Source of the DNA: Pyrinomonadaceae bacterium
Lineage (GTDB): Bacteria; Acidobacteriota; Blastocatellia; Pyrinomonadales; Pyrinomonadaceae
Assembly: GCA_031396065.1 (NCBI GenBank)
Contig: JANNJZ010000418.1
Span: 9,030 to 73,029, forward strand
Reading direction: 5' to 3'
Length of the DNA: 64,000 bases
In this document: positions 19,980 through 47,038 of the stretch, one piece after another
Position numbering within the stretch: position 1 is the first letter of the stretch
How the letters are laid out: each line of letters starts with the position of its first letter
Notes under the pieces: generated by a model
What the model saw: the letters and a program-made list of their open reading frames with translations, nothing else
The model's database searches: none
Told to the model about the DNA's origin: nothing
Program-made: the position numbers and the translations under genes

Positions 19980-20243
19980 ATGGAGCGCGATGAGTTTGCT
20001 GTAAAAATTCTCAGCTATCTGGTTGCGCATCCGTTGGCAAAGGACTCGATCTCCGGGATTGAAAAGTGGTGGTTGGCCGGAAAAACACGGAATGAAGGAA
20101 GACAAAAGATTGAGGAGGCCCTGAACCTGCTTGTGTTGAGAGGTTGGTTAATTGGTCGCAGTTCACCCCAAAGTGAAACCTTCTATTCCCTTAACGAGGA
20201 CAGGGTACTGGAGATAAGAGATTTTCTGCACAAATCACGTTAA
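19980..20243 (+). CDS. Small (87 aa) protein, possibly winged-helix; first ORF of the eCIS transcription unit
   Basis: ORF with an ATG start. LNLLVLRGWLIGRSSPQSETFYSLN looks like a wHTH wing. This is weak evidence. Confidence 0.5.
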   Translation: MERDEFAVKILSYLVAHPLAKDSISGIEKWWLAGKTRNEGRQKIEEALNLLVLRGWLIGRSSPQSETFYSLNEDRVLEIRDFLHKSR

Positions 20244-20345
20244 CCGTTGAGAACACGCGTGGGCCACGCGGCGAGGAGCCAGCGCCAGTCTGGACTCTCC
20301 CGTCGCTCGGCGATTGAATTCAGCTGACTTGAAGGAGGAACGTCA

Positions 20346-22832
20346 ATGCCAGTGACGCCGCCGGTAAGTTATCCGGGTGTTTATGTTCAGGAGGTTCCCA
20401 GTGGGGTCCGCACCATCGTCGGTGTCAGCACTTCGATCGCCGTGTTCATCGGCACTTCGAGGAAGGGGCCGATCTACAAGCCGGTACATTGTTTGAATTA
20501 CAGCGCCTTCGTCGATCTCTTTGGAGATGATGCCAACGCCGGACAACTGTCACAGTATGTGCGGCTGTTTTTCCTGAACGGCGGAACTGACTGTTGGGTC
20601 ATGCGCATCGCTGCCGGCGCATCCGCTGCAACTGTAACGCTGCACGATGAGTCGGACGCGGGCACTCTGAGGCTGGACGCCAAGGATCTTGGCTTGGCGG
20701 GAGAGAATATTCGCGCGCTGATTACCTATTCAGGGTTGCAGCCGGAATCAACGTTCAATCTCGAGCTGTTTCGTTGGGAGGTGAATTCAACCGGCCAGCG
20801 CAGCCGTAAGGAAGGAGAGATATGGCGTGGTCTCTCCATGGATCCGACGTCACCCAATTACGCTCCTGGCTTCATTACGCAAAACTCGAAACTCGTCGAT
20901 GCCACTGATCTTAATGCTGTGCCGGCCGCTGCTGGTACTATTTTCGGGTTTTCTCTGTCGGGCCGCCCCGTGGAGGTTGGCGGAACCTTTCAAGCGCAAT
21001 GGCAGCCGATACTTGGTTCCACGGCAACCACCAACCGTTTCAAGATCAGCATCGGAGGTAGTCCCTATGTTGACGTGGATCTGTCAACCATCGTCGTGGG
21101 AAACAACGTAAATGCTTTGCTTGATTCTATTGGCGCCGCCATTCAGAACGCATTCGGGGCGATTGGTATTAGCAACATCATTCATTCGCCGACCGCCGGC
21201 GGCCCCGGGAATTTTGAAGTCCGTTTTCTTTCGACTGCCACGCAGACGCCCGGCAATGTCCGGCGGTTACGCATCGCGCGGGTTACTGACAACGGCGATG
21301 TCTTCATCCGTACGGGCACTACCGTAGGCGCCCAAAGGGACCTCGCAGTGCCTCTGATGCTCGGAACCGAGCAAGGCGGACTCGAGGTTTCCGGCTATGC
21401 GGAGCGCCGCCCGGCACCAACTGGAATTACACTCAATGTCCTCGATCCAGTGGTCGTCACAAGCTTAGCTGGCCTCGATCAAACAGAAGTAACCTCCGTG
21501 GCTCTGGAATCCGTCCAGAGCAGTGGCATTCCTGCGCTGCGCACGATCTCCCTGCAACCTCCGGGTTCGCCGAATGTCGTAACCGTGTCATCCCCGGCGC
21601 CACCGCCGCCACACTTGGTAAGCGAAGACGCTTCTACTGTTTCTGCCAACGGCGGTTCGGATGGTGTGCGGGAAAAGTTGGCTCTAATTGCAGAGGCGGT
21701 GAACAGGTTCACTCCGCCGGCCGGCGATACCTGGCGTTGGAAGGCCGAAGTCTGGGGTTACCGCCTCGCCTTGTTGCCGACAGAGGCGGCCGAAGACAAC
21801 TTCCTTTCGGCCGGTTTTGCCTTCACTACGACTCCTGCGCTGGCGGCCGGATCGTTCACCAACAACGTTCACTATTACAGCCTCGGCATGAGTGGCAGCT
21901 CGGTGGGATTTCAGACCAGCGCTGCCGGCCTTGCCTCTGATGGCACCCCGCCAGATCTGGCCGCCTATCGTTCGGCGTTCCCAATTCTCGACAAGGAAGT
22001 GGACCTGTTCAACCTCATGTCTCTCCCTCCGGACGCGGCGATCCCCATCGAGAGGGTTTACGGCGAGGCCAGCGTTTTCTGCCAGCAGCGCAGAGCGTTT
22101 CTGCTTATGGATCCGCCAACCGAGCCCGGCAGAACGTGGGATGACGCGCAAAAGGCGGCCACCGGGGTTGCCGCCTTACGAATTGGACTGGTCAAAGACT
22201 ACAGCGCTGTGTTCTATCCGCGCATTACCGTTGACGAGGCCGGGCTCAAGAAGAACATCGGACCTTCCGCCGCAATCGCCGGTCTTTGTGCTCGCACCGA
22301 TAGCACCCGCGGTGTCTGGAAAGCGCCGGCGGGGACTGAAGCGGATCTCCGTGGCATCGTGGGACTCGAGCAGCGGTTCTCAGACAGCGAAAACGGAATC
22401 TTGAATCCGCGCGCCGTAAATGTCTTGCGCACATTTCCCAGTGGCATTGTGAACTGGGGGGCGCGCACCAATTTCGGTGACGACAACACGCCGCACGATT
22501 ACAAGTACATTCCGATCCGGCGGTTGGCATTGTATATGGAAGAGAGCCTGTACCGGGGACTGAAGTGGGTCGTCTTTGAGCCAAACGACGAACCACTATG
22601 GGCCCAGATCCGTCTGAACGTCGGCGCCTTCATGCACAATCTTTTTCGTCAGGGAGCTTTTCAGGGACGCATGCCCAAAGAAGCTTACTTTGTAAAGTGC
22701 GATGCCGAAACCACGACGCAAAACGACCGCAACCTTGGCATTGTGAACATCTGGGTGGGGTTTGCCCCACTGAAGCCGGCCGAATTCGTGATCCTTTACC
22801 TGCAACAGATGGCCGGACAGATCGAAACCTAA
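20346..22832 (+). CDS. Contractile tail sheath protein (Cis2/Afp2-4-like), unusually long at 828 aa
   Basis: The N-terminus PGVYVQEVPSG...IAVFIGTSRKGP and the C-terminus NIWVGFAPLKPAEFVILYLQQ are hallmark sheath motifs. A strong RBS (GAAGGAGGA) precedes the gene. Confidence 0.9.
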   Translation: MPVTPPVSYPGVYVQEVPSGVRTIVGVSTSIAVFIGTSRKGPIYKPVHCLNYSAFVDLFGDDANAGQLSQYVRLFFLNGGTDCWVMRIAAGASAATVTLHDESDAGTLRLDAKDLGLAGENIRALITYSGLQPESTFNLELFRWEVNSTGQRSRKEGEIWRGLSMDPTSPNYAPGFITQNSKLVDATDLNAVPAAAGTIFGFSLSGRPVEVGGTFQAQWQPILGSTATTNRFKISIGGSPYVDVDLSTIVVGNNVNALLDSIGAAIQNAFGAIGISNIIHSPTAGGPGNFEVRFLSTATQTPGNVRRLRIARVTDNGDVFIRTGTTVGAQRDLAVPLMLGTEQGGLEVSGYAERRPAPTGITLNVLDPVVVTSLAGLDQTEVTSVALESVQSSGIPALRTISLQPPGSPNVVTVSSPAPPPPHLVSEDASTVSANGGSDGVREKLALIAEAVNRFTPPAGDTWRWKAEVWGYRLALLPTEAAEDNFLSAGFAFTTTPALAAGSFTNNVHYYSLGMSGSSVGFQTSAAGLASDGTPPDLAAYRSAFPILDKEVDLFNLMSLPPDAAIPIERVYGEASVFCQQRRAFLLMDPPTEPGRTWDDAQKAATGVAALRIGLVKDYSAVFYPRITVDEAGLKKNIGPSAAIAGLCARTDSTRGVWKAPAGTEADLRGIVGLEQRFSDSENGILNPRAVNVLRTFPSGIVNWGARTNFGDDNTPHDYKYIPIRRLALYMEESLYRGLKWVVFEPNDEPLWAQIRLNVGAFMHNLFRQGAFQGRMPKEAYFVKCDAETTTQNDRNLGIVNIWVGFAPLKPAEFVILYLQQMAGQIET

Positions 22833-46061: not shown

Positions 46062-46066
46062 ATGGA

Positions 46067-47038
46067 ATGAAGACAACCTCAAAACTTGGCGCCGACCAGA
46101 TCGCTGACGCAATTGAGCGAAGTTATGGGGGCCTGGACAATATTCGCGGCTCCGCCGTCCGGGGCTTGTTGAGAATTCGCGAAGCCAAGACGAATTCTCG
46201 TCGGCGCGATTTGGAAAACGCGCAAAAGTCAGGAGACACCGACGCCGTGCGACGGTATACCGCGATGGTTGCCGCCGGCCAACAGATGATCGCGGTACTT
46301 CGGCGCGACGCGGAAATCTCAGCGACTAAAATCCCCGAGCGCAAACACGACGCCGTGATCGTGTATGGACAGGTCGCGCGACAAAACAAAGCGCAAGTTG
46401 ACCCGGTAACCAGCGCGCGGGTGGCCGTTTTTGATCAAACCCAAGAGGCCATGGGGAAACAGTTAGCCGTCACCACGACAGACAATCAGGGTCATTTCAA
46501 GTTGGAAGTGCCGATTGCCGGCCAGGTCACTGACTCCCAAAACGTTCGCCTTGGCTATGTCGCGGCCTTTGATCAGAATGGCCAGAAAGTTTTAGCCGCG
46601 CGAACCATACCGCTCCTGGCTGGATCATTGAGTTATCGCGACCTACTGATCACCGGTGACTCCGCACAAGAATGGACTGTCGACACGTCCAAACCGCAGG
46701 CACCAACTGAGGACCGCGTGTGCGCGGCCGATGAGTGGGTGGTCCGTGGACGAGTGACCGACGACGGTGGCACGGGTTTACCCGATCTGATTGTCACCGT
46801 CCACGACAAAGATTTTCTTTTCGACGACCGCCTCGGGCAGGCTAAGACCGATCAGAACGGATACTACAGCCTCAGCTATCGAACCGAAGACTTTCGCGAC
46901 CTTATCGAGAGAAAACCTGATATCTACATCGACGTCATGAATAAGGAGGGGAGGCAGCTTTACACCTCGAAACGGGCAATTAGATACGAAGCCGGCCGGG
47001 TCGAAATCATCAACGCGGTGATCTCATCCCCCAAGTAA
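46067..47038 (+). CDS. Hypothetical protein with transthyretin/carboxypeptidase-regulatory-like modules; last gene of the eCIS block
   Basis: The ATG at 46067 is preceded by AGGAGGA. The track's start at 45821 lies inside the upstream gene. Motifs are TTDNQGHFKLEV and KTDQNGYYSLSY. Confidence 0.7.
   Translation: MKTTSKLGADQIADAIERSYGGLDNIRGSAVRGLLRIREAKTNSRRRDLENAQKSGDTDAVRRYTAMVAAGQQMIAVLRRDAEISATKIPERKHDAVIVYGQVARQNKAQVDPVTSARVAVFDQTQEAMGKQLAVTTTDNQGHFKLEVPIAGQVTDSQNVRLGYVAAFDQNGQKVLAARTIPLLAGSLSYRDLLITGDSAQEWTVDTSKPQAPTEDRVCAADEWVVRGRVTDDGGTGLPDLIVTVHDKDFLFDDRLGQAKTDQNGYYSLSYRTEDFRDLIERKPDIYIDVMNKEGRQLYTSKRAIRYEAGRVEIINAVISSPK

Follow-up and report, generated by a model that had tools for sequence, protein, structure and literature searches.

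A gene cluster for an apparently complete contractile injection system, fitting lineage II, in a Pyrinomonadaceae bacterium

A complete contractile injection system cluster

We analyzed a stretch of 64,000 nucleotides from a Pyrinomonadaceae bacterium of the Acidobacteriota (GenBank assembly GCA_031396065.1, contig JANNJZ010000418.1, positions 9,030 to 73,029; hereafter the window). The region 19980-47038 very probably encodes a complete and intact contractile injection system (CIS) of the Afp/PVC superfamily. Our scan for open reading frames (ORFs) gave 20 co-directional ORFs on the + strand, in an unbroken string with short gaps or none (Table 1). An initial annotation, made from the letters of the window without database searches, had rightly seen that the genes are co-directional, but had counted 19. 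It had also reported start/stop overlaps at 26389, 28560, 28793, 37474, and 39873; the ORF coordinates bear these out and reveal an additional one at 33598. The last protein, given there as 324 amino acids (aa), starts at ATG 46067 and has 323 aa. As a minor correction, the gp25 start is placed at 34511.

Pfam matches were graded against the curated cut-offs, and calls below them are marked as such. The models for the sheath, the gp19-like tube, Pvc16_N, GPW_gp25, and DUF4157 all match above cut-off, as the initial annotation had led one to expect. The weaker models behaved differently: DUF4280 gives a partial match below cut-off, and neither J protein has a Pfam match to Baseplate_J. Matches in Pfam, NCBIfam, PHROG, and PDB nevertheless span every core component, which supports the original identification of the parts. 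The cluster has the sheath and gp19-type tube genes, a Pvc16_N/DUF4255 tail terminator (73.9 bits against a cut-off of 27 bits), and a baseplate core of gp25-like, J/gp6-like, and VgrG-type spike proteins. It also encodes an AAA+ ATPase (Cis15), the criterion separating CIS from phages and R-pyocins (PMC12210884), and a protein with DUF4157/eCIS_core, defined as a core domain by Geller et al. 2021.

None of the 20 ORFs is truncated: each comes within a few percent of the length of its orthologues, with which it shares 55-90% identity (related loci L001, L082, and L083). Since their lengths equal those of orthologues in related clusters, nothing looks inactivated, and we saw no inactivation of the structural genes, which the initial annotation had named as a possible objection. 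There was no excess of internal terminators or sigma-70 promoters within the cluster.

Gene order and lineage placement

The cluster fits lineage II by its gene content, as subtype IIa or IIc with IIa favoured. According to Chen et al. 2019 (PMC6899500), lineage II loci of every subtype generally lack an afp14 homologue, subtypes IIa, IIb, and IIc have separate gp27 and gp5 ORFs in place of a single afp8, and IIa and IIc have afp11 in two copies. Here, afp8 is split into the 354-aa gpD and the 187-aa Phage_base_V protein, there are two afp11 genes and no afp14 homologue, and afp10 (PAAR) is present, on a weak DUF4280 match only. Two or three extra conserved genes of unknown function add to the likeness to IIa/IIc, and the divergence of afp12 and afp13 recalls what was reported for IIa (PMC6899500). 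In contrast, neither an 828-aa sheath nor a sigma-54 module like those found here is described in that study.

To place the gene order, we searched 82 fetched related loci with all window proteins by tblastn. The same order recurs in Acidobacteriota, Pseudomonas fluorescens, Achromobacter, Nostoc/Calothrix, Ktedonobacter, and a Methanotrichaceae archaeon, i.e., in Acidobacteriota, Pseudomonadota, Cyanobacteria, and Chloroflexota plus an archaeon. It runs sheath, tube, 260-aa protein, (298-aa-like protein), cap, ATPase, (78-aa protein), and DUF4157 protein, followed by tube initiator, 91-aa protein, gpD, gpV, PAAR, gp25, and the first J protein (J1). Two related genomes (L001/L082 and L083) have all 20 genes in this same order, continuing with the second J protein (J2), the 805-aa protein, the DUF6519 fibre, and the CarboxypepD_reg protein. 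About 40 of the 82 loci, from several phyla, have their DUF4157 gene in the position between the ATPase and tube-initiator genes. Because the same order recurs across loci and phyla, a cargo gene in mid-cluster is the rule for the lineage. Hence, the organisation is not non-canonical, as had been proposed: its traits match lineage II. The split of Cis8 (gpD, then gpV) and the position of the effector between ATPase and baseplate genes were both correctly described in the initial annotation, but neither is unusual.

Among characterised systems, the closest is that of H. borinquense (clade IIa; PMC11566945; 9ezm), the best sheath match by both sequence and fold, which likewise has two cis11 genes, cis12 and cis13, no cis14, and effectors with DUF4157 domains. 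That system is membrane-bound and contact-dependent, like a type VI secretion system (T6SS), and is associated with a six-helix membrane protein; its structural genes are divided between two sub-clusters, and immunity partners accompany its DUF4157 toxins. We found none of these features here. The CIS-Sc of S. coelicolor (clade IId; 8bky/9gtp; PMC12237407) provides the second-best sheath match, and its Cis11 matches J1. It has no tape-measure gene and yet makes particles of uniform length. Unlike our cluster, it has only one cis11 gene, an unsplit VgrG-like Cis8, two tube genes, and no tail fibres; its site of action is the cytoplasm, where it works through the membrane protein CisA.

The more distant AlgoCIS of Algoriphagus machipongonensis (clade Ib; PMC8894135) resembles our cluster in its cargo: Cgo1 and Cgo2 consist of a disordered N-terminus, DUF4157, and a variable C-terminal domain, are encoded inside the cluster, and reach the tube lumen through loading assisted by the AAA+ ATPase (PMC8894135; 2026 PROCIS preprint). 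As a lineage I system, it differs in having one long Cis11 with a cage, an unsplit Cis8, a cap adaptor, and a tape measure that can be recognised (Alg14). Afp and PVC (clade Ia) share the core parts, namely sheath, tube, gp25, J, spike, PAAR, AAA+ ATPase, and Pvc16 cap. They differ in gene order and in having three sheath and two tube paralogues, Afp14/Pvc14 tape measures, adenovirus-like fibres, and effectors without DUF4157 at the 3' end. As a locus of the extracellular CIS (eCIS) type, the cluster is an ordinary one, and hundreds of near-syntenic clusters are already present in public genomes and metagenomes.

Table 1. Genes and other features of the cluster and its borders (coordinates in the window)
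Feature	Coordinates	Strand	Evidence or remark
Left direct repeat copy, ~170 nt, tRNA/tmRNA-like 3' domain (T-arm), ends CACCA; putative island boundary	17672..17847	+	89% identity to 47057-47225
Sigma-54 enhancer-binding protein (EBP), 464 aa, putative cluster activator	18344..19738	+	Sigma54_activat 3.2e-62, AAA_lid_14, HTH_8
Sigma-54-type promoter motif TGGTAT-N5-TTGCT	19920..19935	+	Ends 44 nt before first ORF
Conserved protein (orf87), 87 aa	19980..20243	+	Co-occurs with EBP
Sheath (Cis2), 828 aa	20346..22832	+	Phage_sheath_1/1C
Inner tube (Cis1), 168 aa	22857..23363	+	Phage_T4_gp19 3.5e-40
CxxC...CxxC protein, 260 aa	23388..24170	+	phrog_150 'baseplate hub' 1.4e-7
Disordered protein, 298 aa, 50% P/A/S/G/T/Q	24186..25082	+	Positional family, conserved termini
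Tail terminator/cap (Cis16), 434 aa	25088..26392	+	Pvc16_N 1.7e-20, residues 9-195
AAA+ ATPase (Cis15), 724/729 aa	26389..28563	+	AAA 3.5e-29, WHD 7e-11
Small protein between ATPase and cargo, 78 aa	28560..28796	+	Positional homologues in L001, L005, L008, L014, L038
Cargo/effector, 892 aa	28793..31471	+	eCIS_core/DUF4157 4.2e-32
Tube-initiator-like protein (Cis5/Cis7 role), 256 aa	31474..32244	+	CIS_tube 0.0027, below cut-off
LysM-like small baseplate protein (P2 gpX-like role), 91 aa	32255..32530	+	phrog_46 'baseplate hub' 4.4e-4
gpD/gp27-like hub, 354 aa	32537..33601	+	Phage_GPD 7e-5, below cut-off
gpV/gp5-like OB-fold spike, 187 aa, C-terminal half of Cis8	33598..34161	+	Phage_base_V 4e-23
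PAAR-like (DUF4280-like) spike tip, 114 aa	34164..34508	+	DUF4280 5.6e-4, residues 4-24 only, below cut-off
gp25-like sheath initiator, 125 aa	34511..34888	+	GPW_gp25 1.2e-13
Baseplate-J/gp6-like wedge protein 1 (J1, Cis11a), 861 aa	34892..37477	+	TIGR02243 1.9e-53
Baseplate-J/gp6-like wedge protein 2 (J2, Cis11b), 799 aa	37474..39873	+	TIGR02243 7.9e-39
gpI/Mu gp48-like (Cis12-like) wedge protein, 805 aa	39873..42290	+	Weak matches in homologues
Tail fibre/receptor-binding protein, 1252 aa	42303..46061	+	DUF6519 1.7e-16, Beta_helix 1.6e-10
Accessory protein, 323 aa, transthyretin/CarboxypepD_reg-like beta-sandwich	46067..47038	+	TTR-52 5.1e-8, CarboxypepD_reg 7.9e-8
Right, degenerate repeat copy	47057..47232	+	Starts 19 nt after last stop codon

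Tail genes and a candidate tape measure

More than 1400 homologues of the sheath are present in the protein collection, and relatives are encoded by at least 579 GTDB species. Its best PDB matches by sequence are 9ezm from H. borinquense (6.2e-65) and 8bky from S. coelicolor (1.2e-64). The best fold match of the AF2 model is 9ezm, with 1.7e-20 against 1.5e-11 for S. coelicolor. The C-terminal domain aligns with Pvc2 and Afp2/3 at about 1e-39 to 1e-43. The protein carries a large inserted region, roughly at residues 100-600, in which even permissive E-values gave no Pfam match. Across loci L039-L081, members of the family are either long (~800 aa, as here) or short (~520 aa; e.g., Nostoc, Calothrix, Ktedonobacter), with conserved ends. 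As both forms have these ends in common, the insert of ~300 aa is probably a clade-specific surface addition. Only one gp19-type tube gene is present, as the initial annotation had claimed. The 90%-identity cluster of the tube protein has 231 members, the named ones being from metagenome-assembled genomes of Acidobacteriota/Pyrinomonadaceae.

At the other end of the tail, the cap has a 240-aa C-terminal extension for which we found no Pfam match at permissive E-values, and the cap as a whole has no PDB sequence match. The ATPase gene starts at ATG 26389, overlapping the cap stop codon, or alternatively at GTG 26374; a WHD+AAA protein stands at the equivalent position in L001. The 78-aa protein that follows has no family match in Pfam (permissive E-values included), NCBIfam, or PHROG.

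None of the ORFs matches a known tape-measure family in Pfam, PHROGs, or NCBIfam, in agreement with the initial annotation, which had nevertheless overlooked two conserved proteins in the tape-measure position. One is the 260-aa protein, with a homologue directly 3' of the tube gene in 66 loci and four invariant cysteines. It matches PF12322 below cut-off (2.6e-4); it has no PDB relative, and a profile search gave only a chance rubredoxin match. We infer that it is an assembly factor related to the 'baseplate hub' proteins of T4-type phages. The other is the 298-aa protein, which has no family match in the same three collections, even at permissive Pfam E-values. Its positional counterparts, encoded between the 260-aa homologue and the cap in more than 30 loci, have in common an N-terminal 'M.DFL.RL..R' and a C-terminal 'IGR(I/L)EV' and vary in size from 215 to 1150 aa. 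Since it is located where P2-like tails encode their tape measure, we consider this protein a candidate length determinant. Two cyanobacterial homologues have 1116-1150 aa: that of Nostoc punctiforme NIES-2108 (L061:14058-17408) retains both terminal motifs, and that of Stenomitos frigidus (L062:13435-16887) retains the C-terminal tail and lacks the N-terminal motif at the called start. In the structural study of S. coelicolor, how tail length is set without a recognisable tape measure is an open question (PMC12237407).

Baseplate, spike, and fibre genes

The 256-aa tube-initiator-like protein keeps its place in 34 loci and has no PDB sequence match. The 91-aa protein is conserved in 27 loci and matches phrog_7145 (3.3e-3) in addition to phrog_46, the PHROG matches covering residues 40-88; Pfam gave nothing, even at permissive E-values. 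The gpD protein aligns with residues 36-337 of All3320 of the tCIS (3e-6), with Alg8 of AlgoCIS (7aef_q, 1.3e-5), and weakly with VgrG (0.023), which points to a counterpart of the N-terminal half of a VgrG-like Cis8. Orthologues of the PAAR-like tip (114 aa, at the matching position) and of gp25 (125 aa) are found in L082 and L083.

Both wedge proteins lack Pfam matches and are recognised by TIGR02243 'putative baseplate assembly protein', J1 above the cut-off of 155.8 bits (182 bits) and J2 below it (133.7 bits). J1 also matches the wedge family phrog_219 (1e-14) and S. coelicolor Cis11 (9gtp, 5.7e-12), and J2 matches phrog_219 (1.2e-21) and T4 gp6 (0.0093). The two are distant paralogues, colinear in two blocks (3e-7 and 6e-7). 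The 805-aa protein is harder to assign. It has 840 homologues, none with a Pfam domain; among 44 of them, Tail_P2_I and Mu_Gp48 each matched four weakly. No PDB match was obtained with the single sequence or a profile. Its AF2 model (pLDDT 72.8) has a confident right-handed beta-helix at about residues 480-740, and residues 1-207 are of low confidence though strongly conserved. The fold search gave only generic beta-helix enzymes and tailspikes (E >= 0.009), so that the gpI-like call depends on the weak Pfam matches in homologues. The modelled N-terminus is consistent with a gp7/gpI-type protein that is ordered only inside the wedge bundle. Since the wedge of S. coelicolor is made of two Cis11 and one Cis12 (PMC12237407), a heterotrimer of J1, J2, and the gpI-like protein would by analogy be a natural arrangement here.

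DUF6519 is the eBAP5 baseplate anchor of fibres, often found with C-terminal beta-helix folds (PMC12923769). By this definition the 1252-aa protein, which also matches phrog_7458 'tail spike protein' (6.2e-5), is a tail fibre of the eBAP5 type. Orthologues of the 323-aa protein come after the fibre gene in L082 and L083, a position that suggests a fibre accessory or a chaperone.

The cargo protein

The DUF4157 protein had been proposed as the cargo, and its eCIS_core match supports this. It has a low-complexity N-terminus, DUF4157 at residues 101-177 (HELTH), a long linker rich in Pro/Ser/Thr/Ala, and a C-terminal domain of ~200 aa (~690-892). A word-indexed homology search and Pfam at permissive E-values both came back empty for this last domain, while an exhaustive search retrieved 256 relatives, in which it is always C-terminal. 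Nine relatives were scanned: seven have eCIS_core, and two are short (178 and 280 aa) and match nothing in Pfam. The conserved residues are D814-H815..D818..D825..N829-L-W-P..N838. From this motif, in a domain that no family model matches, we read a probable HNH/EndoVII-type nuclease. The L001 orthologue carries Ntox14 in its place, and the C-terminal domain is thus polymorphic.

A sigma-54 module upstream of the cluster

The initial annotation started the locus at its first ORF and missed an adjacent sigma-54 activator and promoter. Besides the window, about 16 related loci have an EBP gene ahead of their sheath gene; the N-terminus of the window EBP has no Pfam match at permissive E-values. 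The product of orf87 has 12 homologues at the same position, with invariant Y13, P18, A20, D22, G26, W30, and W31. It has no match in Pfam, NCBIfam, or PHROG, except for one non-significant Pfam match at permissive settings (E = 0.11), and a winged-helix fold is our own tentative reading. Of the 17 loci with EBP/orf87, the window among them, 10 have the motif TGGYAY-N5-YTGCH, compared with 1 of the 56 that lack EBP/orf87 (Fisher p = 3.1e-7). In 9 of the 10 motif-positive EBP/orf87 loci, it ends 44-75 nt upstream of orf87. EBP, orf87, and a sigma-54-type promoter hence appear to form a conserved upstream module. In the supplementary data of Geller et al., Sigma54_activat is a 'Shell' domain of eCIS operons, with 49 occurrences, and the main text makes no mention of sigma factors. 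Our literature search on sigma-54 and eCIS found no study of sigma-54 control of an eCIS.

Direct repeats and a putative genomic island

Also overlooked in the initial annotation were two direct repeats that enclose exactly the EBP gene and the cluster, a segment of 29.4 kb. GC content is 57-60% inside the repeats against 51-54% outside. Such a higher-GC segment, bracketed by tRNA-like direct repeats, suggests that activator and cluster were acquired as a genomic island. In the left copy, the T-arm alone matches Rfam tmRNA. The right copy has a weak tRNA-Sec-like Rfam match (20.8 bits against a threshold of 47 bits). The repeat could not be assigned to tRNA or tmRNA: it fails the Rfam gathering threshold and default ARAGORN, and relaxed ARAGORN returned implausible intron-containing models. 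In L083, the repeat element follows the last CIS gene and is split by a 3.5-kb RHS-like insertion (L083:16967-17074 and 20564-20708).

Mode of action and alternative explanations

The initial annotation had called the system extracellular. The injection machine stands, but the adjective overstates the case, as the characterised lineage II relatives closest by sheath act otherwise. The same machine might not be released at all. It may fire while attached to the inner membrane of the producer, like a T6SS (haloarchaeal IIa), or in the cytoplasm, killing the stressed producer (CIS-Sc). We regard this as a serious but less probable option. It is these two systems that supply the closest solved sheaths, the haloarchaeal one shares the two cis11, the missing cis14, and the DUF4157 effectors, CIS-Sc likewise lacks a tape-measure gene, and there is no lysis cassette in the cluster or the 64-kb window. 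However, the cluster encodes a dedicated fibre of the eBAP5/DUF6519 beta-helix type along with a fibre accessory protein, unlike CIS-Sc, which is fibreless. Neither the cluster nor its neighbourhood encodes a multi-pass membrane protein comparable to Hbor_38620 or CisA, and the DUF4157 protein lacks the downstream immunity partners of the haloarchaeal toxins. Given the dedicated fibre, the lack of a membrane-anchor candidate (none of the structural proteins has a suitable hydrophobic segment), and the lack of immunity genes, we lean slightly towards released particles, at roughly even odds against the alternatives.

Other explanations are much less probable. All structural genes are homologues of phage tail genes, att-like direct repeats with a tRNA-like 3' end bracket the region, and there is an integrase fragment at 3076-3798, as might be expected of a prophage tail module or an R-type tailocin. 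But this fragment is 14 kb outside the repeat-bounded segment, and the CIS markers Pvc16_N, AAA+ Cis15 ATPase, and DUF4157/eCIS_core are present. The flanks are chromosomal housekeeping genes (relA/spoT, secDF, surA, exbB/tonB), and over 20 kb upstream and 17 kb downstream there is no gene for capsid, portal, terminase, replication, holin, or endolysin. In the flanking ORFs of the window, Pfam and PHROG detected no head, packaging, replication, or lysis genes, and the cluster has no recognisable tape measure, so we rejected a phage or tailocin origin as very improbable, as the initial annotation had done for a prophage. A canonical T6SS (subtypes i-iii; TssJLM, TssA, TssB/C, ClpV) was also rejected: there is a single phage-type sheath ORF with a Pvc16 cap, and no membrane-complex genes in the cluster or window. 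The surroundings are mosaic, with a truncated EBP (16371-16976), the integrase fragment, and the degenerate right repeat, which could indicate a decaying, non-functional remnant of a horizontally acquired cluster. This too is improbable, if a little less so, given the 20 of 20 full-length ORFs and the preserved translational coupling. Moreover, the closest relatives retain the same genes, which indicates purifying selection.

Several points weigh against our reading of an intact, island-borne lineage II system. The nearest characterised lineage II systems are not extracellular. The PAAR, LysM, tube-initiator, and gpI-like assignments come from sub-threshold matches, and IIa/IIc was assigned by gene content and closest solved structures. 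The tape-measure role is deduced from position, conserved termini, and variable length, and the 298-aa protein is disordered whereas known tape measures are helical. The strict promoter motif is absent from 7 of the 17 EBP/orf87 loci, including the closest GTDB relative (L008). No immunity gene adjoins the putative nuclease cargo. Finally, the segment between the repeats lacks an integrase, and the repeat itself cannot be recognised as a tRNA or tmRNA.

Flanking genes

The downstream flank carries chromosomal housekeeping genes for ABC-F, surA, relA/spoT, exbB, tonB, and secDF. A tRNA-Val(GAC) is located at 50057-50132 (+), 3 kb downstream of the cluster. Between it and the cluster are a 299-aa ORF (47538-48437) without family match, hydrophobic at both ends and signal-peptide-like at the N-terminal one, and a 210-aa ORF (49378-50010), also without family match. 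Just left of the left repeat, a 201-aa ORF (16371-16976, -) has only the AAA_lid_14 and HTH parts and is apparently a truncated second EBP. It is followed leftwards by an overlapping toxin-antitoxin-like pair (15531-16198, -) of 115 aa (phrog_2523) and 107 aa (HTH DNA-binding, phrog_2339). The gene run at 4427-14396 (-) encodes proteins with effector-associated domain 1 (EAD1), a 784-aa STAND-like NTPase, an EAD1-trypsin protein, a metallopeptidase-like protein, and a 923-aa trypsin-PLD protein, and looks like an NTPase-centred conflict or defence system. Further left, the 240-aa ORF at 3076-3798 (+) matches the tyrosine integrase phrog_1 (1.2e-22) over part of the profile and is the probable integrase fragment noted above. 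An ORF of at least 866 aa (1-2600, -) runs off the 5' end of the window.

A working model and its implications

The intact lineage II system that we favour might work as follows. The EBP would activate the sigma-54 promoter, with which it is associated across loci, driving one long operon led by orf87. The gpD hub, gpV spike, and PAAR-like tip would form the central spike, adapted to the tube by the 256-aa tube initiator and the 91-aa LysM-like protein. Six wedges would surround it, each probably a J1-J2-gpI-like heterotrimer replacing (Cis11)2-Cis12, with gp25 starting the sheath. The 168-aa tube and 828-aa sheath proteins would then polymerise and be capped by the Pvc16_N protein. Speculatively, the disordered 298-aa protein would set the length of this tail with assistance from the 260-aa Zn-ribbon-like protein, because the two occupy the position of the tape measure and chaperone in phage P2. 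The AAA+ ATPase may load the 892-aa DUF4157 protein into the tube lumen via its low-complexity N-terminus, and the C-terminal domain would act as a probable HNH-type nuclease. Released most likely as free particles, the system would bind a glycan on the target-cell surface through its DUF6519/beta-helix fibres, and contraction would drive spike, tube, and cargo in.

The lineage itself was catalogued in 2019-2021. Our analysis makes a modest addition to it: a candidate family of tape measures, a sigma-54 module, a cargo domain with an HNH-like motif, and a putative island bounded by repeats. It is possible, although we would not count on it, that the previously unnamed 298-aa family is the 'missing' tape measure of lineage II, working as an extended chain instead of a helix, and that a subset of systems, including this one, is under dedicated sigma-54/EBP control. 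In the literature surveyed, no Acidobacteriota-type member of lineage II has been purified or imaged, and the locus can serve as a clean, intact reference for this abundant type of cluster. It gives a lead on how lineage II systems set the length of their tails. Sigma-54-dependent control of a CIS, and an eCIS-linked HNH-like cargo domain without an adjacent immunity gene, are further leads that can be tested.

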